Origin: Psammoneis japonica
Taxonomy: Eukaryota
DNA length: 64,000 nt
Assembly: GCA_008632985.1 (NCBI GenBank)
Contig: QPGO01000019.1
Span: 310,001-374,000, forward strand
Direction: 5' to 3'
The position numbers were made by a program, and so were the translations under genes. Under the pieces are notes generated by a model. The model was not told the origin of the DNA. It searched no databases and saw only the letters and a list, made by a program, of their open reading frames with translations. How positions within the stretch are numbered: the first letter of the stretch is position 1; each line of letters opens with the position of its first letter. Of the stretch, positions 24,647 to 64,000 are shown one piece after another.

Positions 24647-25795
24647 ATGGTTCTCACTCGTCAGCAACAAACCGATGGTTTCGAGCACGTTGTTGGAACC
24701 GTGCTTGCCCAAGGTGCTGGGAGCCCTCTTCGTTTGGCTTTGGCCCAAGACGGCACGGACTCGCATCAACAACTGTTCACGTTCACACCGTCCCAAATCG
24801 ACTCGCTTGAGTGCGACAACGGCACCAATGTCATCCCTTTGCCCCGTGGTTGTGAGAACATGTTAGCAGCTCTGGTTGGTCTGCACATTGTCAAAGCACA
24901 CAAAGGTCTTGACGTTGCCAATGACTTCTCGTTGTTCGCGCATGACGAGTTCCTTGCCTGCCGCCTCAGCCCCGACTGCATGTCTTCTGTGTCCATCGGC
25001 AGCTCACCCCTCGCACCTCCGCATGTCACCAACCCGACCAAGGCACGCGACCCGGTGCGGGACTTCAAACGAGGCATCAAGCGTGATCCCACCGCTTTCA
25101 CGGCTCTCAAATCCAACAAGCAGTGGCACACTTGGCACACCTCACTTGTGGCACAAGCCCGTGCCCAAGACGTCGAGTGCACTCTAGACTCGTCGTACAA
25201 ACCGACCAGCCCCGAAGACAAACTGCTCTTTGCTGAACAGCAAAAGTGCGTGTTCGCCGTCTTCGAACGCATCCTTCTCACCGACAAGGGCAAGGCTCTC
25301 ATCCGCGAAAATGTGGGGTCTTCTGACGCACAGACCGTCTGCTGAGCCTTGTCTGAGTGCGCGCTCGCCTCCACCCGTGCATCTGTCGAGTCCTCCACCC
25401 TGCCAACGTGCCTTGCCACCGCACGTCTTGGTGATGGTGCTTGGAAAGGTCCGACCCACGGGTTCATCCTTCATTGGCAAGATCAGTTGCGCAAGTGCGA
25501 GGCACTCATCCCGGCCAGTGACCACTTCTCTGAAGGACAGAAGCGCGTCATGCTCGAGAATGCCGTGCACCCTGTCGAGGAACTCCGTGCTGTCAAGAAC
25601 CAAGCTGATCAGCATCGTACGCAGAGTGGCAAGAGCCTCACATGCGATCAATGCTGTGGCTTGCTCCTCTCCGCGGCAGCCCAATGCGACAGCACGTTTC
25701 AACCCAAAGACGACACCTCGAGCTCCCCGCCGCGCCATGTGCACACACGACGTCTGCTCCGAGGAACCGTCCGACGATGTGTTCTACGACATTGA
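24647..25795 (+). pseudogene. copia gag, interrupted by TGA at 25343-25345 (probably CGA->TGA)
   Basis: MVLTRQQQ...DFKRGIKRDP.AF..LK...W..W...AQARAQDV...FAEQQKCVFAVF...FILHWQDQLRKCE. Confidence 0.85.
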
Positions 25796-28700
25796 CAGTG
25801 ACATTGACGTCCTTCAGGCCAGTGCTGCCTGCACCCGTGGTCCCAGCCTCACCGGTGACCAATGGAAACGTCTCCCTCCCGACCACCAACGGATTTGGGA
25901 TTCGTTGCCCCATTCCTCCAAGGCGATCATCCTTGAGCATTCTCGTCCGCCTCCCCGCAACCCGCGAGACAGCAACTGCCATGAGTCCGTTACGGCCAAC
26001 CTTCATGACCAACGCCTTGGGAGTGACGGTGATGTCAACTTGTCCAACACGACTCCTGCTGACTCTGGTGACTCCGCTCCAAATGTGGGTGCCACTTCGG
26101 ACAATCCCATCCTGGCGCACCTCACCAAGCACAAGCCACTGCCACCCGGTGATCTGCACTGTCTGTTGTCTCCTGACCAAGCCCCCAATGCCAGTCGACC
26201 GGGGCCATCCGCCGCTCCCTCTACCCCGCCAGCTTCTGCCGATGACATGGAACTTAACGGCCGCACTTGCTGCCACGTCAATGACCACAATGTCATTTGC
26301 TCTGCCTCTGCTCATCGCTCCACATGCACTGGTGCTCTGGTCGATCGTGGGACCAACGGTGGCATTGCTGGCGACGACGTTTGCGTCATTGCACGCACCT
26401 CTCGCCAAGTCGACGTTCAGGGCATTGACGACCATCAATTGGTGGACATCCCCATTGTCACCGCTGGTGCCGTCATTGAGACCCAGCGTGGTCCCGTCAT
26501 CGCCATCCTCCATCAGCACGCATGCACGGGAAAGGGCAAGACCATCCATTCCTGCGGCCAGCTCGAATGGCACAAACAGGATGTCAACGATCGCTCTGTC
26601 AAGGTGCCCAACGGCTTGCAACGTGTTGCCACTCCTGATGGCTGTGTCATCCCCATTGACATCAAGGCTGGCCTGCCTTGTGTTGCCATGCGACCTTGCA
26701 CTGACGCCGAGCGGGACACCCTGCCCCATGTCATCCTCACTGGTGATGACACATGGGATCCTTCCGTCCTCGATCACTCTGTCACTGACGACGACCAGTG
26801 GTGCGACGCGATCTCTGACCTGCAGGACGATCCCACTGCCAACCTGTTTGACGAATGCGGCAACTGCCGTCATCGTGTTGTTGTCAACGAGACCATCTTG
26901 TCCGCTTCCTTGTCTGCCGATCACGCGTCCGCCCCAGATGATCACCTCATTCCGAATGACGGCGTGTTCTGCAAGTGTCATCTACACGCGATTGACCCCA
27001 AGGACGATGACGTCCCGCCCCCGGAGCGCACTGTGCAGCCCAAGGATCCACCCTTCGAGTCTCTTTGGCCTCACTTTGGCTTCCCACCTGCTGATGCGGT
27101 CCGTCACACTTTTGACTGCACCACGCAGTGCGCCCGCATGCCCGCCGGTGCACACCTTAGGAAGGCCTGCAAATCACCCAACCCCGCCCTTAATGTGCAC
27201 CGCCGCAACGAGCCTGTCGCCACTGACACCGTTTGTGCCGACACCCCGGCCGTTGACTCTGGTTGCACCAGTGCCCAACTGTTTGTTGGCACCGAATCTA
27301 CTGTCACTGACATCTGCGGCACCAAGACGGACAAAGAGTTTGTCAACACACTCGAGGATCAGATCCGTGAGCGTGGTGCCCCACCCAAACTCATTGGCGA
27401 CCGTGCTCAAGTTGAGATCAGCAACAAAGTGCTCGGGATCCTACGGGCCCTCTTCATCTCCAGCTGGCAAAGTGAGCCTCACCAGCAACACCAAAACTTT
27501 GCCGAGCGTCGACACCAGACCGTGAAGCGCATGGCGAATGCTGTCATGGATCGTTTTGGTTCGCCCGCCCACACATGGCTGCTGGCGCTCATGTGTGTGT
27601 GCTTCACACTCAACCACACAGCGTCCCCACGTCTCCACTGGCGCACGCCCCTCGAGACTCTCACTGGCTCCACCCCGGACACCAGCCCATTGCTTCGCTT
27701 TCACTGGTGGGAACCCGTGCACTTCCACCTCGATGACTCCGATTGGCCGTCCGAATCCCGTGAGTTGCGTGGACGCTTCGTTGGCATTGCTGAGCACGTC
27801 GGCCACCAGATGACCTTCAAGATTCTCTCTGACGAGACTCAGAAGATCCTCTGCCGGTCCAACGTCCGCTCCGCTGCCACCGATCCTGCCGTTCGAAACC
27901 TGCATCTTGATCCTCCTGATGGGGAGCCACCTGAACCCATCATCAAATCTCACCATGACGACAACCCCGTCGATTCTTGCCATGGCAACAACCCCGTCGA
28001 TTCTCCTGATGGGGAGATCAGGACACCCAAGATGCCAGTTTTCGATCCGCAAGACATCATTGGACGTACCTTCCTCATGCAGCCACAAGAGGACAGACAA
28101 CGCCACAGAGCTCGCATCGTCAAGGCCATTGAAGACCACGAATGGAAAGTGAACGGCAATCCCGAGCTCACTAAATTCGTCTGCTCTGTCAACAACGACG
28201 AATGCGAGGAAGTCCTTGCCTGCAATGACATCATGAATCACATTGAGCAAGAAGACGAAGACACTGCTGTTTGGAAATTTCGACGCATCGTGTCACACGA
28301 AGGACCTCTGAAGCCTCACGACCCAACCTGGAAAGGCTCAAGCTACAACATCATGCTTGAATGGGAAAGTGGGGAGATCACGTCTGAGCCTCTTGCCATC
28401 ATCGCCAAGGACGACCCCGTCACCTGCGCCATCTGTGCACGAGAGAACGGACTCCTCGACACGGATGGCTGGAAGCGGTTCCGCACCATCGCGAGGCGCC
28501 AAAAGAAGCCATTTCGCATGGCCAACCAAGCCAAGCTTTGCTCCTTCCGCACTGCACCTCGCTGCAAGTACGGATGCGAAGTTCCCCGGAACTACAAACA
28601 TGCCATGTCACTAGACGAACGCAACGGCAACCGCAAATGGGGAGACGCAACTAATCTCGAGATGGACCAACTCGACGAATACGAAGTCTTCCATGACTGC

Positions 28701-30344
28701 GGGCCCTTCGAGTCTTCCACTCCTCCTGCGGGACACAAGAAGATCCGAGTGCACCCAGTGTGCGACGTGAAACACGACGGTCGCCACAAGGCACGACTCG
28801 CAGCCGACGGGCACCTCACGGACGTACCCATCGATGGTGTCTGCTCTGGAGCAGTCTCCCTCCGTGGCCTTCGGCTGATGATTTTCCTGGCCGAACTCAA
28901 CGAGTTGGAGACATGGGCCACCGACATTGGCAATGCCCACCTTGAAGCCACCACCAAGGAGAAGCTTTGCATTGTGGCCGGACCCGAATTTGGCAAACTC
29001 GAAGGACACATCCTTGTCATCCACAAGGCCCTGCATGGACTGCGCAGCTCCGGTCTCCGCTGGCATGAGCGCTTCGCCGACTGCCCACGAGCTGAAGGCT
29101 TCTTCCCCTGCCGCGCCGAACCCGACATTTGGATGCGCAGGAACGGCGACCACTGTGAATGCGTTGCCGTTTGTGTGGATGACCTCGCCATTGCCATGAA
29201 GGACCCTCAATCTTTCGTTGACACTCTCACGGAAAAGCACAAGTTCAAGCTCAAGGGTGTGGGACCCATTGAGTTCCATCTGGGTTGCGACTTTTCCCGG
29301 GATCCTGACGGAACCTTGTGCCTGTCTCCGCGCAAGTACATCGAGCGCATGGTCGACAGCTGCACCCGACTGTTTGGGGAGAAACCTGCCACCAACGCCC
29401 TGTCACCTCTGGAGAAGGGTGACCACCCCGAACTGGACACTTCTGAACTGCTGGGACCCGATGGCATTCACAAGTTCCAGTCTCTTGTTGGTTCACTCCA
29501 ATGGGCAGTGTCCCTTGGTCGAATTGACACCACCACGGCCGTCATGTCACTCTCTAGCTTCCGAGCTGCGCCCCGTCAAGGCCACCTGGATCGTGCCAAA
29601 CGCGTCTGTGGGTGCCTCTCCAAGATGCGACACGGTGCTCTCCGCGTTCGCACGGAAGAGCCCGACCATTCGGATCTCCCTGCTCCGGCCTGTGAGTGGA
29701 TGCATTCCGTGTGCGGCGAAGCAGAAGAGATGATCCCGAAGGACGCTCCACCGCCCCTTGGCAAGTTCGTCACTGCCACCCACCACGTCGATGCAAACTT
29801 GCACCATTGCGTGCTCACCGGACGCTCTGTCATGGGAATGCTCCACTTCCTCAACAAATTCCCTTCTGATTGGTTCTCTAAGAAGCAAGCCACCGTGGAG
29901 ACTGCGACCTGCGGGTCTGAATTTGTTGCCGCAAGGACTTGTGTCGAGCAGATTGTTGACCTGCGCATCACCCTGCGCCACCTTGGCGTCCCGATCCGTA
30001 ATGTCAGTTGCATGTTCGGTGACAACAAGTCGGTTGTAGACAGTGCCACCATCCCGCACTCCAAGTTACACAAGCGACACACCGCACTGTCGTTCCACCG
30101 TGTGCGTGAGGCAATTGCCTCTGGTTGCCTTGAGTTCCACTTCATCGAAGGCTCCCGCAACCCTGCTGACATCCTCAGCAAGCATTGGGGTCACTCCCAA
30201 ATCTGGGACCTTCTCCGCCCCCTCATGTTCTGGAACTTCATTTCATCCGAAGTCGAATCTGTTTCTGTGGCTCCTCAAGCAAACTGGGGAGTGACAGGAT
30301 TTGAACAGGATTCAGGTGCGCGCGAAATGTCGCGCGCTGTTTAG
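25740..30344 (+). pseudogene. copia pol (protease, integrase, reverse transcriptase, RNase H) with mutated catalytic and conserved motifs
   Basis: LVDRGTNGG (PR); ATDT..SEPHQQHQNFAERR (IN); HKARL, TDIGNAHL, ALHGLRSSG, CVDDL (RT); HVDANL, TCGSEFVAAR, GDNKSVV, NPADILSK (RH). Only 6 Tyr in the 1704-aa ORF. Confidence 0.95.
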
Positions 30345-37965: not shown

Positions 37966-40900
37966 AAAACCCGGGTGTGGCACCCGGGTTTTCACATTGG
38001 CGACAGCCGTTAGACCAAAAAAACAAATGTGCATTGACAACGGACTAAATCCCTTTTAGCCCTCTCTTCATCACTGTTGATCCATGGCGCGCGCAGCAGC
38101 AACCGCCACAAACCGATTGCCAGCTGCTGTGCCAAAGATTGTGGGCGCCACACCCCAGTTTCTGGGGCGATTGTCCTGGGTTTTCGTGCGCGATCTGTGC
38201 GCCGTAACCTGCCGGCATGTTTGTACGAAAAAATGAGCGGCAGTGCAGCATCAAGCTCGGCATGAAACGAACGTTGCTGCTGCAACAACAAAAGACGAAT
38301 TGAAGAAGAGTGCTGTGGCGGCGCTTTTCAACCAAGGTGCTGTTGATGCAGCGGCGGTGGCTGGACCAAGCTTGCCATCTTGTGTGAGACGAGTTGGCCG
38401 TGATGAACCATCTGGTGAGCTCAATCTAGAAGAAGCGCTGGAGGAGGCCAATGAAGAAGGTGATGGAGGTGACTCCGATGAGGAGCATGAAATTGCCGAC
38501 ACGCACGATGACACAAGGGCTGACGCCTTTGCTGATCGGCAAAGAGCCGTGGTCAATGGCGAGTCTGATGAACAGACAGTTGAAGTGAATGACACCACTT
38601 CGTTGCTGCTTCACCGCGGGGATGTCGAGCACCCCCACAATCTTCACATCCCAGTGCCGCCAACTGACTGGGTTCCTTCAGCTCAAAAGGTGCAACAAGG
38701 CGAGCCTGAGTTCACGGATGCAGACAATCCAGGCGGCTGGAGTCAGTTCACCTTCCGCCCTGAATTTGATGCCAAGGGCGCCAAACAATGCTTGCGCCAT
38801 TTGCTCCCAACAGGTGCCGCTCCTGTTCCCGAAGATGAAGAAGGGAGACGTCTGGTCAACAATTGGGAATTTTTTTGTGATGGGTGGACACGTGAAAGAT
38901 CATCCCATTTTGTTCCTGATGATGCTGGAGTGACGCCATCCCTGTCAAACAGGAGTGGAGCATCAAAGGACAATCTGTTCCCAGAATGCAGGAAGGGCCA
39001 CTTGGATCTGGCAATGCTGAAAGCGCTTGGCATGACGAAGGAAGGAATCAGCAATCATGATGCTCTCTTTTTTTATCAGTTGATTTTACCAGTTTGCGAC
39101 ATTTCAAAGTCGGGTGTCGACAATGATCCACGAAAGCCGTTTTACACAGAGGTTGAAAGGTTCTCTAACTTGCACGCTTTGAGAGACCCAAATCTGTTCA
39201 GCTCGCATGGGCACAGTGCCAACATGGTTGCTGCAACAGAGTTGGTGCATTTTGATGGTGGTGTGGTGGTTCGTGATGGGGTGAGAGGTGGCAGTGATGG
39301 CGCCATTCATCGACGGTGGCAGAGCGGATCAGACTGTGATTCAACAATGTCAACGGCGATGCACCACACCCGCTGGCTCCAAATGAAGCATCTGATCAAG
39401 CTTTGCGACAACAGTGCGGCGCCACAACGTGGAGAGGATGGGTGTGACCCAGCACGCAAGCATTCCATGCTGTGTGATGTCATCACACACAATGTGAATG
39501 CGATCACTGGAGTTGAAGACCTCGACATTTGTGGTGACGAAACAACGTGGGGGCGTGCAGGTTACGGAGAGGCTGGCAGCGGATTGACTGGTAGAATCGC
39601 TGGGAAGCCGGGCATCACAAAGGGGGGGCAAACAGTCATTGTCAGTGACGTGCACCGCATTCGACCGCAAGCGTGTCTACATCGTCACAAGCTTCATCTG
39701 AAGCCTCAAGGTTGGGGAGCAATGGGCCCGCTTGAAGTGCGAATGATGATGGAGCAAACAGCACCCATGGTGCAAACTGTCGGGAGCAATGATGATGATG
39801 GAGGGCCGAAGAAGATGTTCATGGGCAAGCCTCATGGCACTTGGGACAACTGCTTCTCAGGCGACCAGATTGTGGACTGGCTTGGCCAAAATGGATTTTC
39901 TGCAACTGTGACATGTCGTTGAGATCGCCTCCCATCCGGAATCTCTGCAAAGCATTTTCACAAGAAGGCGACGCGGGTGGATGACAGGTCACGCAGTGAA
40001 GACGGTCCCCAGATCGGATGCGAACAGGGAGTGCCAACGGCTTCATTGTTCATTTCAATCTACCTCCTCCTGCAACATTGCAACGGTGAACGCTCTCAAC
40101 AAATGCTCAAAATTTGCAACACATCGTGAACAAGGCCAGGGAAGAAGCAAGCGCCATTGGGGCATTGAAATGAACGAAGCAAGAATGACGCACCTCAGCA
40201 CCTGCTCACGAATTGATTCTGTTGATCATTTGATGAAGAATGCACACATGTTTTGTCGATCGTGGAAGTGCTGGCACTCAGCAATGCTGCATGGTAAGAA
40301 GCTTGCCGCAACAGTCGTGTGTGACATCTGTCTTGAATGTTGTGAAGGGAATGTCGATCCTGAGTGGCGCGATGACAATCCCACATCATTCTGGTCGTTT
40401 CGAGACAGGTGTTTGGAGCAAATGTTGGAGTGCAAGCCGGAGCGTCGCATGTGTCCTGGAGACTCAGCAATGAGAGTGTCAACCCAACAAAACCAGCAAC
40501 GCCATGACCGTTCGGTCGACAGCGCACCTCGCTTGACTGCCACAACGGGTGAGGTCGTCACAACAACTCAATGCCGGGAGGCAAAACGTGGTGGCCATTC
40601 ATCCCGCTTGTGTGGTGACCTGACACAATTGCGGAGGCACATTGATGGAGTGGAGACGGGTTTGAAGCACCCGTGTCTTTGTGTTTGGTGTGGCAAAGAT
40701 GCACACACGCGATGCAACGTCTGTGGGAAATTCGTGCATTGTTCAGCGTCCCACCATGGGAAACATGGTGATGAGAATTGTTTTTTTCTCTGCCATGATG
40801 AAGGATTGTTTGGTCTTGCACGAGATGACACCAAACTTTTTGTTTGCAAGCGCAAGTCAGATTGGAAAGAGCCGTCGCAAGCAAGAAAGCGGGTGAACGC

Positions 40901-41285
40901 GACTCACATTCAAGACATTCGTCAAGGATGCAGCAACCCTGAATGGCAAGTGTCTGGTTAATTGGCATCACACATAAATCACATTTCTGTCAAACTGCTG
41001 CTGGCAAAGCAGAAAAATGAGCATGACTGATGCATTGACAAAGCAACAATGCCGGGTGCAGGAACCACAATTTTGATGTGGGCGTTGCACCCGCATGAAC
41101 AAACCGGGTGTGGCACCCTCTTTTCAAATGAGGGCACCACACCCACATTAAAAACCCGGGTGTGACACCTGCTTTTCAAGTCGGTGCACCACACCCGCAT
41201 AAAAAACCCGGGTGTGACACCCGCTTTTCAAGTGGGTGCACCACACCCACGTGAAAAAAACCGGGTGCAGCGCCCTGGGTTTTGG
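37966..41285 (+). mobile_element. piggyBac-like DDE DNA transposon with imperfect terminal inverted repeats; transposase pseudogene ~38084-40961
   Basis: RWLQMKHLIKLCDN, GCDPARKH, DICGDETTWG, TWDNCFSG, IDSVDH and C-terminal CVWCGK..CNVCGK.VHC...CF..CHD; in-frame TGA at ~38234 and 39920. Left AAAACCCGGGTGTGGCACCCGGGTTTTCAC resembles the reverse complement of 41250-41284; ~50-bp subterminal repeats at 41095-41280. Confidence 0.75.
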
Positions 41286-42059
41286 CACCAAGACTAAACG
41301 ATGAGAGCAGGTCACAAAATGCGTCTGCTTCATGTCTTTTGTGTGTGGGATTTGCATCGTCATTGGTTGTTGGAGAAACGCGGAGGAGGCTTGTAGAATT
41401 TGTGCACATTTCTGCACAACACCCCAAAATAAATTGCATGTCCATCCGGCCGTTGGACATTCGTGCCGGCATGTGGGTCAGCCGATGCGTTGGCCGGGCA
41501 AAGCACAGACAGAATGTGTGCATCATGGGGCGGGGCGGGGGGTCCAAACAAACACAAACATCATGTTGTGCCAGCACCTTTTTAAGTTTTTGTAATGGAA
41601 ACAAAAGGAGGAATCACACACTGAAAACAAAAAGAGGAGAAAGGACAGGAGGGAGGGAGATGCGCACCTGCCAGGAGAGGAGCGAGAGAGCACACTTGGG
41701 AGCCCGGCATGGCGGAGTTCTTTTGCTCGTGCCATTTACAAAAAGAAGGGGGGGGGGGGGGGGGGGGCAGAGGATGTGCACAGAGAGTTGTGGAGAGGCA
41801 AACAATGAAAATTTCAAACAGGTTTTCCAAACAATGAGAAGCAAAAACCCTCAAAAACTCTCAAACAAGCGATGCAGCGCACCACTGTTGTTGCCAGCAC
41901 ACACACACACAAGACAGCAGCAGAGAAAACACTGGGGTGGAAAAAGAAGGGGGGGGTTGGGGGGGGGGGGACAAACAGTGGTGCAGGAGGGTGCTGCACA
42001 GAGACTTGCGCACACCATCCATGACACTGTGTTGGTCTTGTTGTCACATGCGCAAGACT

Positions 42060-42900
42060 CTGTTCCAGTTTTTGCAAGAAGAAATCTTCCTCATCTCTCT
42101 GCCAAAGTCTCCCCGCTGGAGGACAACAAGGAGGTTCCAGACCTGGGAGCAGCCCCAGTGCTTGCTGAGAATGTCAGCCAGGTTGTGGGGACCTTTGATG
42201 AAATGAAACTGGAGGCAATTGCCTTGCACACATGGTGGAATGAGAGGGCGGTGTGTTGCTTGTGCAACTTGGAGTGTGAGGGATTGTGGCACTGTCCACA
42301 ACCAACTTGTTGTCCCCAAACACACAACATTTTTCATGAGTGGGGGTGCCAAGGTGATGCAGAGTGATTTTCAGATCAATGATCTGCTCAACGCATGTCC
42401 TTGTGGCAAAACAAACTCAGATCCATGCATTGCAGTCTCAACTGTTGCTTGTTTCTTGGAGAACCAATTGGCTGGAAACTTGTTGAGGAAATGAAGGATG
42501 CCAGTGACAGAGCATCTGACAAGCATGCAATCATGGAACAAGTTTGCATCAACGCAGTGAGTTGTGGTGACAAACTTGCCAAGTGGCTTGGGCACATCTT
42601 GTGGGAGCAGCTCTTCTACCTCCCTGCACATGGATTGGGCCCAGTCACACCACACGGGCTTGGGAAGGTCCAAATGGTCGGGTCACTTGGTGCTCACTCG
42701 GAGGGCACCATGTCGCATCTTGGACAGGAATCTGCAGACATGTTTTGCATGGTCTGGATGGCCTTGACGGGGTGCTGCATGGAAGCCAGACAGGGACATG
42801 ATGGCCGCAGTGATGTCAACATGGCCAAGGGACACAGCCCACTGCAGGGAGCCAATCAAGGATTGGAGCTGGTGGATGCCATCTGGTCCAAGTGATTCGG
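42060..42900 (-). mobile_element. Older copia RT/RNase H fragment related to the 23431-30567 element
   Basis: PKPLGKFVTTTHCVDANLFHD...RCSVTGILHFLNKFPANWFSKKQATVETAMHGSEFV, HSKLHKQHTALSFHHV and NLADILSKHWGCSQVW. Confidence 0.85.
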
Positions 42901-46006: not shown

Positions 46007-48457
46007 ATGATGGAAGACGACGGCAAGAAACGCAGTCACGTGGAGGACGGCGAAACAACCGGCGAAGAGACCGGTACGTAGAAATCAGCGTACATGCGTA
46101 CGATTTCTCCTGCATGATTAATGTGCTGAAAAGCTTTTGTCTCTTACTCCTAATTTGTAGAACCATCTTCAAAACAACAAAGAATTGAAATTTATCAGGA
46201 CGATGGACATCCGACCAGCTCGGACGACGACACCTTCATCGGAAACTCCGCGAGCGATGAAGAAGCGATCGAGAGATCCGAATCTGCCCCGAGTACTCCT
46301 ACCTTTGCGACCCCGACAACGGCTCCCGCAAACAGCAATCAAGAGTGGGTTCGCAAGCGACTTGAAGAGCTCTACGCAGAACAAGCAGCCCGTGCAGAAG
46401 AACTCAGAGCGTTGGAAGCGCAACTGACGAGGAGCCCGCATCATTTTCGGGATCGAGATGTGAAAACGGCATTTGAAGATCACATTGAAAAACACAAGAG
46501 GGACGGACCATGCGTCGCCTGCTGTGGAATGGTGGACGCAACGATCTCCTCATTTCCAGAAGATTATCCTGAATTTTTTCACTCGTTTTGTGAGAAAAAT
46601 AAGGAGGAAATCGATTTGGAAAAGGAGAAGTATGGGGAATTCTTTCCTGCGAACGTGAATCTGCTTATAGAAGATGACAATGAAAGCGACGCCCCCCAAA
46701 AGCTGTCCCTGATCAGAAAACAGGCGGCCGCATTGAAACTCGAAGTGACGGAAATAAAGAAGGAACTGAAGATCAAGAACGAAGTCTACTTTGACTTTAT
46801 GTACCTCAACTTTCTCCGCGTTTGCCTTGAGGCGCTTGGATTGTCCGTGAATTTTCGTGAAGTCGGTTTGAAGTCAAAAAAGATCCAAGATCGCATAACT
46901 GGTGCTACGAAACGCAGTGCTGATTTGGTTGGGTCCTGTGGATCGAGAAACCGCCTGATAGTTGAGAGTGCGATGGGAAGACACGCAGACGGGACGAAAG
47001 TCCTATCCAATTCGGCGAAGCTTGCAATGGAAATTGCAAACGAAGGGAAAAAGGAAGAAGGAAATCGTTTCCCTCTTGGGATACTCATGTATCAACAAAA
47101 GAAGAAACGGGGGGACGATATCGGCCTGTGTTGCTTTTCTGTAAGAACCTTGTGCTATTGCAGCAACGTTGCAACTTTGGTTGAACTTGACAAAATCGTT
47201 ACGCCATTCATGGATGTGCCGACAAATAACGTTTCTGTTGACGAGGATGAATTCCATGACGCTCTGAAGAAGATTCTGCAGATCGCGTTGGTTTGTGCTG
47301 CATCTTGTCTAAAGGACGACAAGAATAGTGGCATTAACCGAGATCTGATGGACGTGTTGCTACCCACCAATAATGACAGAGATGAAATCCCAGGAGGGAT
47401 TTTCAGGCCTGGGAGTAGTGCCGTTGTGCCCAACACAGCTAATAGGAATCCCTCTGGAGGCCGTGTTGGTGCAGAGGGAGCAGATTTGCATTCGAACTGC
47501 CCTTGCGCCTCATACGCGTTCTGCCACCGAATTGCGCTTTCGGACCTTTCATCTGTTGAAGAAGTTATTCACGTTTCGTCTCGGCAACGATATGTGCGAA
47601 AAGAAGACAAGGATGCGAGCGAAGGCTGCTTCAACTCATTCAACATTGAGGCCGCTATTGCAACGAGAATGAGGTCTTCGACCGATACGCTTGAGTGCAA
47701 GTCGCTTGTCCGCTTCGTTGACATGTGTTTGACTCACCGTCGGTTGTATATGGAAAAGCTAGTGCCTTGTGATTGGCATCATATTCGTTCCGATCCGAAT
47801 ATCTACTTCAATGCAGCGATCGATATTACGAAAGCTATCTGCGCTCTGCACCATGCAAATATGTCGCACAGTGATCTAAAGCCAGAGGCCGTCATGATTC
47901 GGCCGCGATCGATTCCAGACGATCACAAATGTGTAGATGAGCATGTGTTGTGTGACTTCAATCTTGGCACGGTGAATGCTGACGAGTTTCCGGCAAATAG
48001 GGTTCACTTTGGAACGACTGGATGGTCCCACCAAGGTTATTTCGGTCGTCAGCTCCCCGCAAAGATGAATGACTGCAGAAGTCTCGGTCTTCTTTTGGCA
48101 TACTGTTGCTCGGAAAACGTGGATGATCTAGTATGCTCTGAAGAAGAGCATTTTGGTGTGTCGAAGTCTTTTGAACGTCACGCATGCGACGCCAGTGCAA
48201 GTGTCGAGCAACGAGCGTTGCTACAAGTTGCGTTGGGTCTGTATCGGCAAGACCACAATGCTGCAGAAGCAGTAGATCTGTTGATCGAGGCGAAGCAAAG
48301 CCTGATAAATGGTAAGCACCGTCACCACGAAGTGCACTCCTTCACGAAAACGAAGGAATCTCCTTCCGTTTTTGATGGCAAGAAAACCACCTTAGGTGCT
48401 GTGGCTGGCGCAGCGTCGATGCCACTCAGAATGTTCGATCAAAATATTTTGAAGTAG
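46007..48457 (+). CDS. Two-exon gene with a central alpha/beta domain (possible restriction-endonuclease-like fold) and a divergent C-terminal protein kinase-like domain
   Basis: ATG 46007; intron GTACGT...TTTGTAG at ~46074-46160 joins in frame to ORF 46412-48457; LYMEKL, ALHHANMSHSDLKPEAVMI, VLCDFNLG, FGTTGW and NDCRSLG. Confidence 0.75.
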
Positions 48458-56250: not shown

Positions 56251-56649
56251 AGTCACACACACACACACACTCAGTCAGTCACTCACTCAGTCACAAATGC
56301 CGGTGGTCAGTGAAATCAATCATCGAGGACATGCATTGATTGTGTGTAGGGCTCTATGAAATATAAGTTGGTACCGGCATTTATTGCTGAATATTCTCTA
56401 TTTTCCAATTTTTGCACCATAGCTACACTACTGTATGTACTGTACTTGTACTACCGTACACCTGCGTACGGTATGTACGTACTGATTCGTATGGTAGCCC
56501 CCCATACGTGCGAGTTCTTAGCCTAAAAATGTCTTGTCTGAGATGCGATGCTTGTTTCGTTTTTGCGATTTGCGAGGAGACTTCTTGTCACCCTCACTCG
56601 CCCCACATGGAACATTGATCATTACATTGTCTGTTTTTGCATCGCTGAA

Positions 56650-59600
56650 ATGAGTGCAGTCTTTGAAGCGATCAGCTTGACTATCCGGGTATGCACCGAT
56701 ATCTACCAGTCTTATGAAACAGTCAAAATTCTGCCGGATTTGGCCAAGAGTCTCGCGGATCGGGTACAACTTTTTAAGCCACGACTCCACCAACTATTGG
56801 AACGCAAGCCCCGGTCAGACCATGTCGATCCTCTTCCACACATCCGCGCACTGCAGAAGATATTGGGTGAGATCAAGATATACATGGAGAAGCTCAAAGA
56901 TGATTCGGCATTGAGAAAGGCGAAGAATCACATCTTTTATCGCGGTCTCCTCAAGGACTATGAAAACCTCAACTTCAAACTCGATCGATGTCGTGGAGAT
57001 CTCAAATTTGACTTCGAGTTTGACCAGGACGCAGAAAGGGGTGCGTTTGAGGATGAGACTAAAGGTCTTCTCCAGTGCATCGTCGAGCAGCATGAAGAGC
57101 AAGGTGTAGAGCAGCGTTTCATGCGCGAGATGCTGACAGAAATCCTTCAATTCATCAGACACCACAGCAATCTCGGTCTCACACGACGCAGTAGCCCGTC
57201 CATTGAGGCGGCGACTGCATTTCTTTTTGACGATAGTGACAGTGGAGATCTCACTTCTGTCGTCAACGACCAGATCGCTCGTGAGTACGAAATAGCGGCG
57301 TCGGCGATCGAGGTCCAAGATTGGGTCATCGGGCGAGGCACCTTCGGTCTCGTTTACAAGGCGATATACAAGAATCAATATGTCGCCGTTAAGAGGCCGC
57401 ATATGCAAGATGCAGATATTGTGGAGGAGCTCATAAGCCAAGCAAGATGTCGCAGCTCAATCTTTGTTGCCACAGTTTATGGCTTCAGCAACATCAACGG
57501 GACTCTCTCCATTGTTATGGAGTACGCACCATGTGGTTCGCTGACAAGCCTGCTACGTGCATCATCTGGTAATGATGGACACTTATCCGCCAAAACCGTC
57601 TCAGGAAGCCTTCAGGCTACACTTCCTTCCAGCGTAGTGATCCAACTTCTTCACAAGGTAGCTCTTGGAATAGAGTTTATTCATCAACGGAGGATCATCC
57701 ATAGGGACGTGAAGCCAGACAACATTCTTTTGGGACGCGATCTCAACCCCAAGCTAACGGATTTTGGATCTGCTCGAGAGCTCACGGAAAGTGCAACTCA
57801 CGTGACGGGATCCGCTGCAGGATCCATCTACTACATGGCGCCTGAAGCATTGATTATCCTTCAACGCGGCGAAGGTCGGTATACGTACACTGTCGACCAG
57901 TACAGTTTTGGTGCTGTCATTGTTGTATCCTGCCATCGATTATTTGGTGGCCCTCAGACTCGTCGTCGCTCGCCATTCAAGGACGACCCTCTCCCTAATG
58001 CATTTCCAAGACTTCTTTCTGAAATTAAGGATAGGTGCATGTCGGAAAATCCTCGTGATCGCTATGGCCGTGGCAGCACCTCCGAGGCTCTTGTGTCAAG
58101 AGCAATGGAGGATATGATATCAGGGGGGAACAGCAACATATCTTCTCCAATCCATGATGGCTTTCATGGTATGGATGTTACGGCCGTCGCCAATGTGGCC
58201 AGGTTTTCGTTTGAGAATCGGACACAACAAGGAAAGCCCAGCAGCACTAGTGTGTCCACACCACTTCGTCCGATAGCTCCCAAAGAATCAACGAATGAGG
58301 GACTTCCTAGTCTCGCTACTGCTTCGTCGTTATCGCTGTCCTCATCAATGGGCAAGACGGCCTTTGAGAATCATACACAGCAAGGAATGCTCAGTAGCAC
58401 TAGTGTGTCCACACCACTTCGCCCGACAGCTCCCAGAGAATCAACGAATGACGGACTGCCCAGTCTCGCTATTGCTTCTTCGTTACCGCCGTCCTCATCA
58501 ATGGACAAGACGGCTTTTGAGAATCAGACGCAACAAGGAGTGGTCAGTAGCACCAGTGTGTCCACACCACTTCGTCCGACAGCTCCTAGAGATTCAACGA
58601 ATGAGGGATTGCCTAGCCTCGCTAATGCTTCGCCGCTACCGCCGTCCTCATCAATGGGCCCGACAGCTACTTCCGTATTGCCACTGGCACGTGCACCCAC
58701 GCAAAACATGGAATCAACAAACGCCTCATCTGCTTATTTTGGGGCTGCCCAAGATGAAGAAGAAAGGAATGGAAACAAGTGCATCTCGTTTCTATCCGCA
58801 AGAAAGAAATATGTCGGCATGATCATTGCAGCGTTGGTTGTAATCGTCGCGGCTGTTGTAGTCGTTGTTAGGGTCAGCCAGAACAATGAGCCGGCCTCCT
58901 CATCCTTCGTGTCTTCTCCCACCCCGCTTCCCACCGAAATGCAGTTTTCAATGTCGTTTCCTTTCCGGCGGTTGGAAACTGACAATATTCGTAGTGAAAA
59001 GGCTCATGGAGCCTGTCTCAAAACTGTGCACACCAATGAGACTCTTTGGATAGCGCTACCTGTTTGGCAAAGTAAGTCGGGCCTCTATCGCTCTCTGAGG
59101 TCGATTTTAACACAGCGTGACGCTGGGTACAACGCGATTCATATCATCATCTTTGGAGGCAACTTGGCACAGGAGCTGTCAGATGAAGAAAAGAAGGATG
59201 TCGAAAATGAAATGAATAATTCTGCAGAATTTGTGTTGGCCGCGCATCTGACGTTTCTCAAAGATTCTAATCCCGCATTATCTAGAGGGGGGGCCTATGG
59301 GATTTGGTTTATGCTTTCATGGATTCGACAACGGGCACTTCCCCATGATTACGTCCTCATGCTCTCTGAAGGAGATTCACTGGTAGATGAAAAGGGTCTA
59401 AGCCGGATTCGGCTCCGTCTTCTTCGCGAAAAGCCTTGGTTTGCGAGCGAACAAAGCAACACAAGAAACTCGAGAAGGTGCCGAAAAATTATCCCTAGCG
59501 ATGCGAACCAGTTTCTACGTTGCCATCCACGAACCATTTTCATGTCACACCTGCTGAGCCACCTTGGCCGACAAGATTTTCAGGATGGTAATGGTTCGTG

Positions 59601-62600
59601 GCTCCAAATGGATGCAGACCAGCCATTTTTGCGAAAGATAATGGATCTTGCCGGCCCCAGTCACTCGTCATATTTTGGTGAACACCTATCTGATACTGCA
59701 TCTGCTGCTTTACAGTTTTCCACGCCTGCCGTCAATAGTAAAGATACCGGTTGGCACGAAATGAGCCCGGGTCCCCACTTCCCTGAGATTATCCATGTTG
59801 TGTCGTGCGTGTTCGACAGAATTAACACACGCGAGTTTTTGAGTCGTTTATTGCAGTCCGAGTTGGAATCAGGTTTTGTGTTGCATATCCATATTTGCAA
59901 CAACAAGAGTGATAGGCAAACTGAGCTAGAGCAACTGGCGGCGGCATCGAAAAAAGAAAACGATAGTTCACACGAAGTTTTTGTGCATAATATGGAACAC
60001 GATCTCGGTGGGTATTCTCGTTTTCTCCTGGCACGTCGCATTCAACGAAAGGAGTTTGTCGACTATGTAATAATGATCGACGATGACCAGTATGTCACCA
60101 AAACCACGATAGCCGAGATATTTAGCCATCGTGAACCACAAACGTACAAGGCATGGTATGGCAAGAACTGGAAACGTTTTGAAACATCCTATTGGATTCC
60201 AGAAGCAGAAGTTGTGAATACAGACGACCCAGAATATCCATTTAACCATTATCCGGACGTTACTACCTGGCAGTATGGCGCAGCAGGAATGTCCATCATA
60301 GACGCCGCAATCTTCATGAGCACTGAGCTTTTCGAGATAGAGCGGAAATACGTCTTCCTTGAAGATATGTGGTTATCCCATGTTGTGCAGGTTTCAGGAT
60401 GGTCGATTGAACGCCTCTTTGTCGTGTTTGAAGTCTACTCTGCCAGTTCTCAAATGAACCAGTGGAAGGACGTGGAAGACTTGAAAGATGAGTTTTTTGC
60501 AAAGTTAGGCTTTCTTGCTTGTAGCAAATCGCAGTCGTCATCACGAATTGACCGCCGGAAAGCGAGTCCGACCCAAAACGCAGTTTCACCCACTACCTGC
60601 TGTCCGGTCCTCTCAACGTGTACGGTGTGCGGTGGCGTTGGAGCGGTTCCAATTAAAAAGCCAGAAAGGTGTGACATATGCCCCGACGGCCAGTACATTT
60701 CGTACAAGGAACCGAACGAAACCGGTTGTGCCCTGTGCCCAAAAGCCGCGCCAAAGGAACCATGTGGCTCAGCTCAAGATCTGACGGACTGGTTGGTGTT
60801 GGAAGGTGGTCGAAATGGAGTCTCGAGGTCTCATCCCGTCTGCCCCCAAGCCGTCCGCAATCGCATTCACGTGGTGATTCCCTTTTACAATGTCGACGCT
60901 GAAACATTGGACGCGGCTTTTCGCTCGGTTGAGAAACAGAATTATCCAGCTGAAAAGGCGGCCATTTGGCTGTTTGATGATGCTTCAACGAGATACGATA
61001 GTTTCATTGGTCTCTGTGGGCGGGATACCCTTGTTGAGTTCACACCACCATCCAACGGCGGAGACAAGTCTGATCGGCAATTTGCGTCAAAGACTCTAGA
61101 AGGGGTTGTGGCACCTGGTGGCATGCCGTTGCCCGTTTGTTTGCGCTCCACGTCACATCTTGGTCCTGGAGGTGCAAAATACTGGGCATTTGTGTTTGTG
61201 GATGCAATAGCCGAGCCAAACGACCTGGTGATGGTTCTTGACGGAGATGATGAACTTCATGTGGTGAATGCGCTGCAGATCATAAACAACAAATACATTG
61301 ATGACGGTGTTTGGTGTACCTACGGCTCTTCTGTCGGGAAATACTCTGCCCAGACCAAGCCAATACCTGGAATATTCAGAAGCGGTCACGAGCCGTTTCT
61401 GCCTCGCCAGGAGATGCCAACCAATTCGTGGCGATACGGCCATCCTCACACTTTCAAGGCGCATTTGCTAAGACATATACTTCGAAAGGACTTCACCTAT
61501 AGTGACGGTAGCTGGTTGCTCAAGGCGACCGATCGCGGTTACGTGTACCGGATGCTTGAGCTGTCGGGAGCCGACCGCGTCGGATACATACCAGAACGGA
61601 TCTACAAGTACAAGTACTCGAAACTCACCTCCACATTGGCTTCCGTCCCACCAGAGACAAGGGCGTCACATCTACAGCATGTCTTGGATCTTGCTCCCTC
61701 CAGCAGACTCGTCCTGACGCTCCACATTGTTTTGGTTTGTTGGGGACGCATATTTCTACTCAAGGATCAGTTGATCTTTTTGCAGGATCAAACAGGACTC
61801 TTTGGACGGCAACTTGAGGTTCATGTAGTCAACAACAACATTGAGAAAAGAAATGAGGTTGAAGAAATGGTTATGAGCTTCAGACGTTGGCAGCAGTCGG
61901 CCTCCCTAAAGCCAGGTTTCCTGCCTTTATCAGTAGTGCTCGTTCACAATGAAGTGAATTGGCATGCCTTTTCCCGATTTGTGTATGTGGACGAACTGCG
62001 AAAAAGAGAGCCACTGGACTACGTGGTTTTTGTAGATGATGATCAATACTGGATGCCGCACTTCGTCTCGTCTCTTGTTGGCAAACACAAACCCAAAGGA
62101 ATGACAACCTGGTACGGGAAGAAATTTGAATTTCGGGACAATAACGGTCTTGCTGACTACTGGAAGTCAGCCATTACTTGGACCGACATTTTGAAGTCGG
62201 ACAAGCCGTCAGTGTCAACGTTTACGTACGGTGGACCAGGAGGATCAATTATTGATGGTAATTTGTGGCTTCTGGACAACCAGTTACTACGTCTCAAGAC
62301 GGATCTTTCGATGTTTCACAAGTACGATGACATCTGGGTATCGTACATTATGGATGGCCTTTTAGGATGGGAAGTTCGGCGCCTCTTGACTCCAGTGTGC
62401 GTCGATATTGCTAACGTTCACACAAGCTTTTATGCTAAAAATGTTCTCATGCTCGTGGAAGAAAAGCCGCTCGCACGTCTCATGGAAATCAATGCACAAC
62501 TGCGGAATGAGATTAAGGCCGTGGCCACATGGGAGTCGGCCAAGATCGACAAGAAGCACATGTTTCAGGTGATGCAACTGCGCTTTGCCTGGGATGTAAC

Positions 62601-64000
62601 ATACGATCCCAAGGTACCCTCCCCCAGAAGAGGTAAAATGCAAGAGAAAGCATTGGATCGATTGTGTATCAGCAGCAATGACACCGATATTAAGTCACAC
62701 CCGCTGTATGCCAAGGCTGAGTTTCTCGCGAAAGCTCAACCCATGAATGAGGAAATTCGGCACCAGTATCGCAACGTTCTACTCTTTCTGCAGCAACAAA
62801 ATCTGACTCGAATCATTGTCTACGGCCTGCGTGTCTCCGACTTGACGCATCAATGGATTCACTTTGGTTGGTTCCGATCTTGGCTAGACATCATACTCCA
62901 ATCAAACGAAGAAATGCAGCTGGAACTATGCTGGATTGACAAGAATGAGCTCGAGTCGGTTCCGCAAGACGCTTGGGAACATGCCCTAGTCATGTCATCG
63001 TATGGGACTGGTATTTATGGGTTTGATGACATTGAGCCCTTGTTTGTAAACTCGTCCATTTATATTTTGCACGTGCACGATGCGGGGGATCGAAAGGATC
63101 TTTCCTCTATTAAGAATGCCTTTCACTGGTATCGATACGAATACACCAACAGTTTCAAAGAGAAGTACAATGATGGGCTGTTTCTCGAGTGGGCGACAGA
63201 CCTCAATCCATTCGAAATTGAGCACAACCGACCAACAGCAGATAACTTGACTTTTGCTGACAAGAACAAGGGAATTGTCCTAGTTGGTACGATTTGGTAT
63301 CGAAACAAGGCGGAATGGGAGCACATTACACACATTGCGAGTAGCCACTCACTTGTCTTTCACCAATATGGCCGAGTCTCGACTGACATTGACGACATGG
63401 AGGGACCATCCTTTGTTCGTCACTCGGGTTATCTTGGCCATAAGGCGCAATACGAGACGATGCGCGACGCCTACTTGACACCTGCAATTCAAGGAGACGG
63501 ACATTTAGTTCGTGGATATGTACCCTGTCGTATTTTCAAAACTGTTTCTGCCGGCAATCTGGGTGTTTCCAACAACAGGGCGGTCGGCGATCTCTTTCCT
63601 CCGGAATCCATTGTCGTGAGGCACGGGACTTCTCGTGATGATTTGAACTTACTCATTGCAAACGCAATCGAGGCGCTCAAAAACAGTTCGCAGCTGGTTG
63701 CCAGAATCAACGCTGCAATGACCTATGTTCAGCAGGAGCACACCTATCTTGCTCGTTTCAACAGTTTTGCAAATTTCGTCAAAAGCACCCAACGAGAAAG
63801 AGAGGCGGAATGTCACGACACCTTGGATGACATTGCCATGGTAGACTTGGAAACCGGCACTCCTCGATGCATGAGGTACGAAGATAATCACTATCATATC
63901 ATCATGGCATTGTTGGGAGGAGTTCCTATGAAATTTGACAACATGACTGCGATTCCACCCCTGCAGCGCGGCATGCTGCGGCTGCTGGGCCCGGTTGTCA
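56650..64000 (+). CDS. >=2450-aa intronless ORF: MLKL/HeLo-like helical N-terminus, TKL-type protein kinase, Ser/Thr/Pro repeats, TM helix, four GT-A-like domains and a GT-B-like domain; continues beyond the window
   Basis: Frame +1 from ATG 56650 with no stop found to the window end. IGRGTFGLVYKA, VAVK, HRDVKPDNILL, DFG, YMAPE; TM KKYVGMIIAALVVIVAAVVVVVR at ~58804-58872; WIALPVW, DYVIMIDDDQY, IHVVIPFYNV..WLFDDAS..VLDGDDEL, DYVVFVDDDQYW and PAIQG...YVPCRIFK...HTYLAR. Confidence 0.88.
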   Translation, partial: MSAVFEAISLTIRVCTDIYQSYETVKILPDLAKSLADRVQLFKPRLHQLLERKPRSDHVDPLPHIRALQKILGEIKIYMEKLKDDSALRKAKNHIFYRGLLKDYENLNFKLDRCRGDLKFDFEFDQDAERGAFEDETKGLLQCIVEQHEEQGVEQRFMREMLTEILQFIRHHSNLGLTRRSSPSIEAATAFLFDDSDSGDLTSVVNDQIAREYEIAASAIEVQDWVIGRGTFGLVYKAIYKNQYVAVKRPHMQDADIVEELISQARCRSSIFVATVYGFSNINGTLSIVMEYAPCGSLTSLLRASSGNDGHLSAKTVSGSLQATLPSSVVIQLLHKVALGIEFIHQRRIIHRDVKPDNILLGRDLNPKLTDFGSARELTESATHVTGSAAGSIYYMAPEALIILQRGEGRYTYTVDQYSFGAVIVVSCHRLFGGPQTRRRSPFKDDPLPNAFPRLLSEIKDRCMSENPRDRYGRGSTSEALVSRAMEDMISGGNSNISSPIHDGFHGMDVTAVANVARFSFENRTQQGKPSSTSVSTPLRPIAPKESTNEGLPSLATASSLSLSSSMGKTAFENHTQQGMLSSTSVSTPLRPTAPRESTNDGLPSLAIASSLPPSSSMDKTAFENQTQQGVVSSTSVSTPLRPTAPRDSTNEGLPSLANASPLPPSSSMGPTATSVLPLARAPTQNMESTNASSAYFGAAQDEEERNGNKCISFLSARKKYVGMIIAALVVIVAAVVVVVRVSQNNEPASSSFVSSPTPLPTEMQFSMSFPFRRLETDNIRSEKAHGACLKTVHTNETLWIALPVWQSKSGLYRSLRSILTQRDAGYNAIHIIIFGGNLAQELSDEEKKDVENEMNNSAEFVLAAHLTFLKDSNPALSRGGAYGIWFMLSWIRQRALPHDYVLMLSEGDSLVDEKGLSRIRLRLLREKPWFASEQSNTRNSRRCRKIIPSDANQFLRCHPRTIFMSHLLSHLGRQDFQDGNGSWLQMDADQPFLRKIMDLAGPSHSSYFGEHLSDTASAALQFSTPAVNSKDTGWHEMSPGPHFPEIIHVVSCVFDRINTREFLSRLLQSELESGFVLHIHICNNKSDRQTELEQLAAASKKENDSSHEVFVHNMEHDLGGYSRFLLARRIQRKEFVDYVIMIDDDQYVTKTTIAEIFSHREPQTYKAWYGKNWKRFETSYWIPEAEVVNTDDPEYPFNHYPDVTTWQYGAAGMSIIDAAIFMSTELFEIERKYVFLEDMWLSHVVQVSGWSIERLFVVFEVYSASSQMNQWKDVEDLKDEFFAKLGFLACSKSQSSSRIDRRKASPTQNAVSPTTCCPVLSTCTVCGGVGAVPIKKPERCDICPDGQYISYKEPNETGCALCPKAAPKEPCGSAQDLTDWLVLEGGRNGVSRSHPVCPQAVRNRIHVVIPFYNVDAETLDAAFRSVEKQNYPAEKAAIWLFDDASTRYDSFIGLCGRDTLVEFTPPSNGGDKSDRQFASKTLEGVVAPGGMPLPVCLRSTSHLGPGGAKYWAFVFVDAIAEPNDLVMVLDGDDELHVVNALQIINNKYIDDGVWCTYGSSVGKYSAQTKPIPGIFRSGHEPFLPRQEMPTNSWRYGHPHTFKAHLLRHILRKDFTYSDGSWLLKATDRGYVYRMLELSGADRVGYIPERIYKYKYSKLTSTLASVPPETRASHLQHVLDLAPSSRLVLTLHIVLVCWGRIFLLKDQLIFLQDQTGLFGRQLEVHVVNNNIEKRNEVEEMVMSFRRWQQSASLKPGFLPLSVVLVHNEVNWHAFSRFVYVDELRKREPLDYVVFVDDDQYWMPHFVSSLVGKHKPKGMTTWYGKKFEFRDNNGLADYWKSAITWTDILKSDKPSVSTFTYGGPGGSIIDGNLWLLDNQLLRLKTDLSMFHKYDDIWVSYIMDGLLGWEVRRLLTPVCVDIANVHTSFYAKNVLMLVEEKPLARLMEINAQLRNEIKAVATWESAKIDKKHMFQVMQLRFAWDVTYDPKVPSPRRGKMQEKALDRLCISSNDTDIKSHPLYAKAEFLAKAQPMNEEIRHQYRNVLLFLQQQNLTRIIVYGLRVSDLTHQWIHFGWFRSWLDIILQSNEEMQLELCWIDKNELESVPQDAWEHALVMSSYGTGIYGFDDIEPLFVNSSIYILHVHDAGDRKDLSSIKNAFHWYRYEYTNSFKEKYNDGLFLEWATDLNPFEIEHNRPTADNLTFADKNKGIVLVGTIWYRNKAEWEHITHIASSHSLVFHQYGRVSTDIDDMEGPSFVRHSGYLGHKAQYETMRDAYLTPAIQGDGHLVRGYVPCRIFKTVSAGNLGVSNNRAVGDLFPPESIVVRHGTSRDDLNLLIANAIEALKNSSQLVARINAAMTYVQQEHTYLARFNSFANFVKSTQREREAECHDTLDDIAMVDLETGTPRCMRYEDNHYHIIMALLGGVPMKFDNMTAIPPLQRGMLRLLGPVV
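58210..58668 (+). repeat. Three coding tandem repeats of 153 bp (51 aa)
   Basis: FEN.TQQG..SSTSVSTPLRP.AP..STN.GLPSLA.AS.L..SSSM starting at 58210, 58363 and 58516. Confidence 0.92.

Follow-up and report, generated by a model that had tools for sequence, protein, structure and literature searches.

A predicted membrane-anchored MLKL_N-like bundle and protein kinase joined to a glycosyltransferase-like array in Psammoneis japonica

Helical bundles of the MLKL/HeLo class execute necroptosis in animals and related forms of immune cell death in plants and fungi, and are usually described as soluble proteins or as fusions with NLR or kinase domains. Among membrane proteins, plant MCA1/2 and CNR13 carry a bundle of the MCAfunc type, and the bifunctional enzymes of the LARGE type are type II proteins with tandem glycosyltransferase (GT) domains. 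Here, we describe a gene of the microalga Psammoneis japonica whose conceptual product, P0001, appears to join such elements in a single polypeptide: an N-terminal MLKL_N-like bundle, a brace-like helical region, a Ser/Thr protein kinase, one predicted membrane anchor and five GT-like domains, the latter part resembling the LARGE-type enzymes. The gene lies at the 3' end of a stretch of 64,000 nucleotides (assembly GCA_008632985.1, contig QPGO01000019.1, positions 310,001 to 374,000, forward strand), hereafter the window, to which all coordinates refer. MCA1/2 and CNR13 are like P0001 in having a bundle of the HeLo/MLKL class within an integral membrane protein, a relation of ESM-Atlas feature similarity only, and differ from it in the absence of kinase and GT domains and in their different membrane part.

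The closest described architecture to the N-terminal part of P0001 is the plant fusion of an MLKL_NTD bundle, a brace and an active kinase. Pm13 of wheat/Aegilops is reported to comprise an MLKL_NTD bundle, a brace and a Ser/Thr kinase in which, in contrast to animal MLKL and the AtMLKLs, no key residue is missing (PMC10951266). P0001 likewise has a putative MLKL_N-type bundle and a helical brace followed by a catalytically complete Ser/Thr kinase, but Pm13 as described has bundle, brace and kinase only, whereas P0001 adds a 230-residue repeat linker, an anchor and more than 1,700 GT-like residues (PMC10951266). Animal MLKL and Arabidopsis AtMLKL1-3, as outlined in two further reports, also combine a bundle, a brace and a kinase fold, and the basic bundle and predicted brace oligomerisation of P0001 resemble the mechanism given there; however, they are pseudokinases that need an upstream kinase or another trigger, whereas the HRD, DFG and VAVK motifs of P0001 are intact and the protein would be anchored from the outset (bioRxiv 10.1101/681015, PMC8433767). 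For the transmembrane leucine-rich repeat (LRR) kinases of diatoms, an origin independent of other receptor-like kinases has been reported (PMC3019232, with reference to Montsant et al. and Bowler et al.). Two relatives of P0001, P0016 and P0022, which consist of a kinase, an anchor and an LRR-like part, may belong among these reported diatom proteins; P0001 differs in having GT domains where the reported proteins have LRRs (PMC3019232). A literature search, mostly outside subscription journals, found no MLKL-class bundle in diatoms or stramenopiles and no kinase-glycosyltransferase fusion. The MLKL_N-kinase fusion itself is known; what is new is a predicted membrane-anchored, type II version of it with a five-domain GT-like array.

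The features of the gene, all on the forward strand, are as follows.

56548..63999, +: open frame of P0001, 2,484 codons with 0 stops, the 3' end open at the window edge (open reading frame (ORF) listing and translation)
56650..56652, +: probable start codon, Met35 of the P0001 frame (M35), aligned with the Met that opens the relatives P0015 and P0016
56650..57018, +: MLKL_N-like four-helix bundle, residues 35-157, net charge +5
57019..57177, +: brace-like acidic helices, residues 158-210, net charge -7, helical in the AlphaFold2 (AF2) model
57310..58107, +: Ser/Thr protein kinase, about residues 255-520, with a Pkinase match and a complete catalytic motif set
58210..58668, +: three in-frame tandem S/T/P-rich units of 51 residues (Tandem Repeats Finder: period 153 bp, 2.9 copies, 87% matches, 0 indels)
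58813..58881, +: single predicted membrane-spanning segment, residues 756-778, Kyte-Doolittle 19-residue mean 3.36
59050..59727, +: module A first half, degenerate GT2-like domain in which SEGDS replaces DGDDE, with a large deletion
59770..60447, +: module A second half, GT-A-like domain, DDDQY at residue 1178
60520..60765, +: Cys-rich spacer between the modules, 11 Cys between residues 1325 and 1406
60859..61647, +: module B first half, GT2 domain, DGDDEL at residue 1565
61705..62442, +: module B second half, GT-A-like domain, DDDQY at residue 1830
62665..63759, +: GT-B-like (Glyco_trans_1_2-type) domain, residues 2040-2404, homologous to P0019/P0020
63760..63999, +: residues past the GT-B homology, 80 in number, the frame still open at the window edge

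Counted from Met35 at 56650 the frame holds 2,450 codons, in agreement with a first-pass annotation, made from the letters of the sequence, which had claimed one uninterrupted frame of at least 2450 residues; the N-terminal strings it quoted were all found in the P0001 translation. Stops were absent from the P0001 frame in all eight 300-codon bins and numbered 7-12 and 14-22 per bin in the other two forward frames. Position 56650 is the likely start, since the Met encoded there aligns with the first residue of P0015 and P0016, the nearest two relatives of the N-terminus. The gene runs past the 3' end of the window.

The kinase matched Pfam Pkinase (PF00069) with an E value of 1.1e-34 (120.5 bits, cut-off 31.7) over residues 260-461 and carries GRGTFG at residue 262, VAVK at 279, HRDVKPDN at 385, DFG at 405 and APE at 431, so that all the catalytic motifs claimed for it could be located. 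Searched against PDB sequences, it gave 2,519 matches at E up to 0.01, the best 60 of which were all kinases; MST1/2, Pto, IRAK4, TAK1 and ASK1 were the best among the matches listed (E 1.8e-17 to about 1e-14), and the domain fits STE and TKL kinases about equally. Judged by its motifs it is a catalytically competent kinase and not a pseudokinase. Since all five motifs are intact, the pseudokinase character of MLKL is absent and P0001 is not an MLKL orthologue.

For the N-terminus, relatives were sought with an exhaustive phmmer search (residues 35-250 against 1.84 billion representative proteins, E up to 0.001), which returned four proteins, P0015 to P0018. P0018 provides the connection to the MLKL_N family (PF22215): it matches the query with an E value of 8.2e-5 at 27% identity and itself scores 38.3 bits on the Pfam MLKL_N profile (E 1.2e-9), above the curated cut-off of 27; P0015 scores 14.2 bits on the same profile. 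The register agrees across the three, residue 12 of the domain corresponding to residue 8 of P0018 and to position 5 of the MLKL_N profile. MLKL_N was the first or near-first family in three of the four members of this small N-terminal family, with HeLo also appearing in one of the four. A feature search of the ESM-Atlas with domain residues 1-170 found neighbour clusters bearing MLKL_N, RPW8 and MCAfunc annotations (scores 0.89-0.92), the top neighbour being an unnamed fungal cluster (0.93). The single-sequence AF2 model of the domain is a four-helix bundle of about 120 residues at moderate confidence, with a predicted local distance difference test (pLDDT) score of 64.7. With this model Foldseek found no match in the PDB at E <=0.001. 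Two VIA-align searches (a wide one and a second look) gave generic bundles only among the best 50 matches of each; MLKL, RPW8 and CC-R were not among these, which excludes nothing. Weak Pfam matches of Sema, Aminotran_4, the KIB1-4 propeller, RIN1, MitMem_reg and Pfc11 fell below their cut-offs and were judged to be chance. The N-terminus is hence supported, indirectly and through the intermediate P0018, as a bundle of the MLKL_N/HeLo type. This agrees with the MLKL/HeLo/MCAfunc assignment of its first approximately 125 residues in the first-pass annotation, the P0018 bridge, the Atlas neighbours and the moderate-confidence AF2 bundle speaking for it and the direct Pfam match being weak.

The bundle is followed in the AF2 model by two further helices, at domain residues 126-151 and 155-174. 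When three copies of domain residues 1-176 were submitted to complex prediction, a score of 0.49 was obtained compared with 0.00 for the best control, with a contact agreement between runs of at least 85% and a partner pLDDT of at least 79. Among proteins solved as one-chain pairs 21 of 30 attained the mark used, and among those solved as single chains none of 23 did (in eukaryotes, 17 of 29 and 0 of 30, respectively), a calibration made on two copies whereas the P0001 run used three. The predicted trimer contacts show heptad spacing along domain residues 112-169, that is P0001 residues 146-203, which cover the end of helix 4 and the brace-like helices. These models suggest that the brace-like helices probably self-associate. 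Brace helices that lie between bundle and kinase and take part in oligomerisation, as in MLKL, are present in P0001 as a prediction.

Between the kinase and the anchor lies a linker (residues 525-750) of which 39% is S, T or P. The differences between its repeat copies fall on codon positions 1, 2 and 3 in the ratio 14/19/30, and this third-position excess (30 of 63) is a mild sign of coding constraint. Each repeat holds an NxT sequon (ENRT, ENHT and ENQT at residues 557, 608 and 659; window 58216-58530), which would be on the predicted cytosolic side. An RKK at residue 752 stands just on the N-side of the membrane-spanning segment, whose flanks carry K, R, K and K on the N-side and one R on the C-side. 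The other hydrophobic peaks are at residues 26-46, partly upstream of Met35, and at 1712-1745, a conserved strand of the GT core in relatives. No strong N-terminal hydrophobic segment was found, the best mean being 1.81 at residues 27-45 in a hydropathy scan. The single membrane helix preceded by RKK, proposed earlier, was reproduced, and the scan agrees with the lack of a signal peptide that had been proposed with it. There is one anchor with positive charges on its N-side and the GT domains C-terminal to it, which is the type II (signal-anchor) arrangement; a type I receptor kinase is not what is seen, the kinase being N-terminal and the large non-cytosolic part C-terminal. By the positive-inside rule and by where kinases work, we infer that the N-terminal 720 residues would be cytosolic and everything after the anchor lumenal or outside. 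The earlier description of this topology as inverted was not supported in that form: it is the ordinary type II topology of Golgi glycosyltransferases, and in the GT relatives P0002-P0005 and P0019/P0020, too, the most hydrophobic segment lies close to the N-terminus. The death effector and the glycan sensing proposed with it are conjectural.

The part after the anchor begins with two homologous modules, A (about residues 907-1320) and B (residues 1534-1964), which align to each other over 454 columns in an internal BLASTP comparison (E 1e-33, 24% identity). Each consists of a GT2-like domain and, after it, a GT-A-like one in which DDDQ is invariant; the invariant columns of the GT alignment are DDDQ, WYGK and G..S. 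Pfam Glycos_transf_2 (PF00535) matched the whole of P0001 with an E value of 7.2e-10 (39.5 bits, cut-off 23.3), the module B segment alone scoring 23.8 bits. For the second half of module B only weak matches to GT2 (E 0.061) and Fringe (E 0.12) were returned; the equivalent stretch of P0003 (residues 1058-1101, DDDQF at 1067) scored 26.9 bits on GT2, above the same cut-off. The first half of module A is probably inactive, as its SEGDS in place of DGDDE and its large deletion suggest a domain that is not catalytic. The GT-B-like domain is 44% identical to P0019 and P0020 (450-465 residues), which score 28.1 bits (above) and 22.4 bits (just below), respectively, on Pfam Glyco_trans_1_2 (PF13524, cut-off 25); the query segment itself gave no direct PF13524 match. 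A tblastn search with this domain matched seven records of Synechococcus phages at 25-27% identity (best E 9e-9), and in two of these the matched region carries the annotation DNA beta-glucosyltransferase. The Atlas neighbours of the domain agree with the assignment (score 0.95). The earlier count of about five GT-like domains is borne out at five, with evidence that is unequal between the domains.

Relatives of the two parts of P0001 occur in separate proteins. A word-seeded search with the full-length sequence found 13 proteins, four of which are P0002-P0005 and the other nine of which match the kinase only. P0002-P0005 (1,524-1,704 residues), an uncharacterised family, are 43-47% identical to module B over about 650 residues and 24-26% identical to module A; their most hydrophobic segment falls in the first 76 residues, a kinase is absent, and they comprise a weak GT8-like domain, a GT2 plus DDD module and a C-terminal domain different from that of P0001. 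They are thus like P0001 in having an N-terminal anchor followed by tandem GT-A domains, and unlike it in their short cytosolic tails, GT8-like first domain and other C-terminal domain; P0001 lacks the latter two and has instead the duplicated module, the GT-B domain and the kinase cassette. P0019 and P0020 likewise lack a kinase, and their best hydrophobic segment also falls in the first 76 residues.

On the N-terminal side, P0015 is 56% identical to the query and is a fragment of 310 residues from a 1,153-bp contig. It follows the query to the VFVASV of the kinase N-lobe and then diverges fully (residues about 284-310), which looks like read-through into an intron or the contig end. P0016 is 46% identical to the query N-terminus, and its cluster includes P0022/P0026 (786 residues), in which bundle, kinase (HCD where P0001 has HRD), anchor and a Pro-rich stretch are followed by an LRR-like C-terminus; by eye, not by profile, residues about 690-786 resemble the start of an LRR ectodomain, with its N-terminal cap and first repeats, and both proteins appear truncated by their 3.1 kb contigs. 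P0017 (3,883 residues, E 2.4e-8), a repeat-rich protein, was dropped from the alignments, its match covering only 32 query residues (124-155) and being taken as compositional. A profile search with the N-terminal alignment for longer proteins (8,000 candidates scored) returned P0016 alone. Scans of metagenome contigs with the N-terminal alignment and with P0016 gave 436 and 171 pattern-match stretches, respectively, none of which was confirmed by tblastn, and tblastn of both halves of P0001 on the window hit nothing but the gene itself. Because the bundle-kinase cassette elsewhere heads an LRR protein and the GT domains elsewhere form separate type II enzymes, P0001 is, on these comparisons, a mosaic that draws on two lineage-restricted families. 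Among the relatives of the cassette, the long ones all have an LRR-type ectodomain where P0001 has the GT array.

We consider P0001 to be, with a probability of roughly 0.55, a type II glycan synthase of the secretory pathway in which a cytosolic, self-associating MLKL_N-brace-kinase cassette links the enzyme to oligomeric state and phosphorylation. The protein would span the membrane once, with the bundle, the brace, a competent Ser/Thr kinase and the long S/T/P-rich repeat linker in the cytosol and the tandem array of five GT-like domains, at least one of them degenerate, on the lumenal side of the Golgi or secretory pathway. The cassette may regulate the activity or trafficking of the enzyme, or report the status of glycan synthesis to the cytosol, and the membrane-proximal bundle could act as a module for lipid binding or oligomerisation. 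Several results weigh against this proposal. The direct match of the query to Pfam MLKL_N (E 0.0034, 17.4 bits) is under the cut-off, the MLKL_N profile gives no match to P0016, and the AF2 model from a four-sequence alignment was worse than the single-sequence one (pLDDT 49 and 64.7, respectively). Profile searches of PDB sequences found no match to the N-terminal alignment at E up to 10 and none to the GT alignment at E up to 1. The topology was assigned from hydropathy and charge only, and S/T/P stalks with NxT sequons are more usual outside the cell; either the linker sequons have no bearing on the matter or the topology is more complicated than supposed here. Finally, no second full fusion was present among the 13 full-length, four phmmer and one profile matches, which makes an assembly join or a recent or lineage-private fusion possible; this absence is weak evidence, since the databases searched cover few algal nuclear genomes and consist mostly of short contigs. 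Of the other explanations, one takes the N-terminus as a regulatory domain of a generic helical or coiled-coil kind with no relation to MLKL_N, and P0001 as just a kinase-tailed glycosyltransferase. The sub-threshold Pfam score and the generic structural neighbours fit this, as does the tendency of biased helical sequences to draw weak profile matches, RIN1, MitMem_reg and Pfc11 having been drawn in the same way. We nevertheless find it doubtful, given that P0018 scores above the MLKL_N cut-off (38.3 against 27) and is connected to the query by an E value of 8.2e-5 among 1.84 billion proteins, that MLKL_N is first or near-first in three of four family members and HeLo occurs in one, and that the Atlas feature search, which is independent, led to MLKL_N, RPW8 and MCAfunc clusters.

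A different possibility is that P0001 is a membrane-tethered, MLKL-like executioner whose ectodomain, GT-like here and LRR in relatives, is a sensor: clustering would lead to trans-phosphorylation by the kinase, and the brace would free the basic bundle for membrane insertion, ion flux or death. The order of bundle, brace and kinase is that described for MLKL and for wheat Pm13 (PMC10951266). The basic bundle (+5) is followed by an acidic brace (-7), a trimer is predicted for the brace region (on a calibration with two copies), the cassette recurs with an ectodomain of the LRR type, which is a typical sensor, and the first GT-like domain has lost its DxD-type motif, as would fit a module that binds and does not catalyse. 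Such a role seems unlikely all the same: the N-terminus is tied to MLKL_N only indirectly, acidic motifs or a close homology to what appear to be ordinary enzymes are retained in four of the five GT-like domains, about 600 residues separate the bundle from the anchor, and permanent tethering would demand a tight restraint, of which none was seen. The broader suggestion, that the cassette defines a lineage-restricted type II "receptor-executioner" family in a microalga, with an active kinase and an MLKL-class pore or channel bundle in one tethered polypeptide and an exchangeable ectodomain (LRR in P0022, the GT array here), is put forward only tentatively, as an unlikely reading. It is decidedly improbable that P0001 is not one protein in vivo, being instead a bundle-kinase product and a separate GT product starting at Met722, or else an assembly join, a recent read-through artefact or a decaying fusion. 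Met722 (window 58711-58713) lies 34 residues before the anchor and is a candidate alternative start of a GT-only isoform; such an isoform is conceivable because its N-terminus, a short charged tail before the anchor, would resemble those of the kinase-less relatives P0002-P0005. Nor was the full fusion found elsewhere in the databases searched. However, the kinase part has no stop of its own, with about 200 linker codons remaining open where the other frames have 7-22 stops per 300 codons; the linker repeat unit is a multiple of three with 0 indels; the kinase cassette, as P0016/P0022 show, normally runs into an anchor; and an internal start would add an isoform, not remove the long one.

Elsewhere, the window is eukaryote-like nuclear DNA. 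The ORF at 25230-30344 (+), of 1,704 codons, encodes a copia-type reverse transcriptase (RVT_2, E 4.9e-20) and is probably a Ty1/copia retroelement; the block 24001-30000 has a GC content of 57-59%, compared with about 46-48% around it. A further ORF at 46412-48457 (+), of 681 codons, has a sub-threshold Pkinase match (25 bits, cut-off 31.7, E 1.4e-5) with HSD in place of HRD and may be a pseudokinase gene; it was ruled out as a relative of P0001 (best BLASTP E 0.43). Three consecutive ORFs on the same strand at 38243-42367 (+), of 326-559 codons, gave no Pfam match at E up to 0.001 and may be exons of one uncharacterised gene, the stretch around them having a positive GC skew and 51-53% GC.

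P0001 would carry the MLKL_N-kinase theme into another eukaryotic lineage and into a receptor-like, type II format. It would offer a handle on two poorly understood topics in microalgae: regulated cell death with defence signalling on the one hand, and how complex glycan synthesis is controlled on the other. In addition, nature provides in it a compact test of in cis control, namely whether a competent kinase can govern an MLKL-type bundle in the same polypeptide. Should the sensor and executioner role turn out to be true, sensing or the status of the cell wall and its glycans would be tied directly to regulated cell death or ion signalling, and a necroptosis-like module would exist outside animals, plants and fungi.

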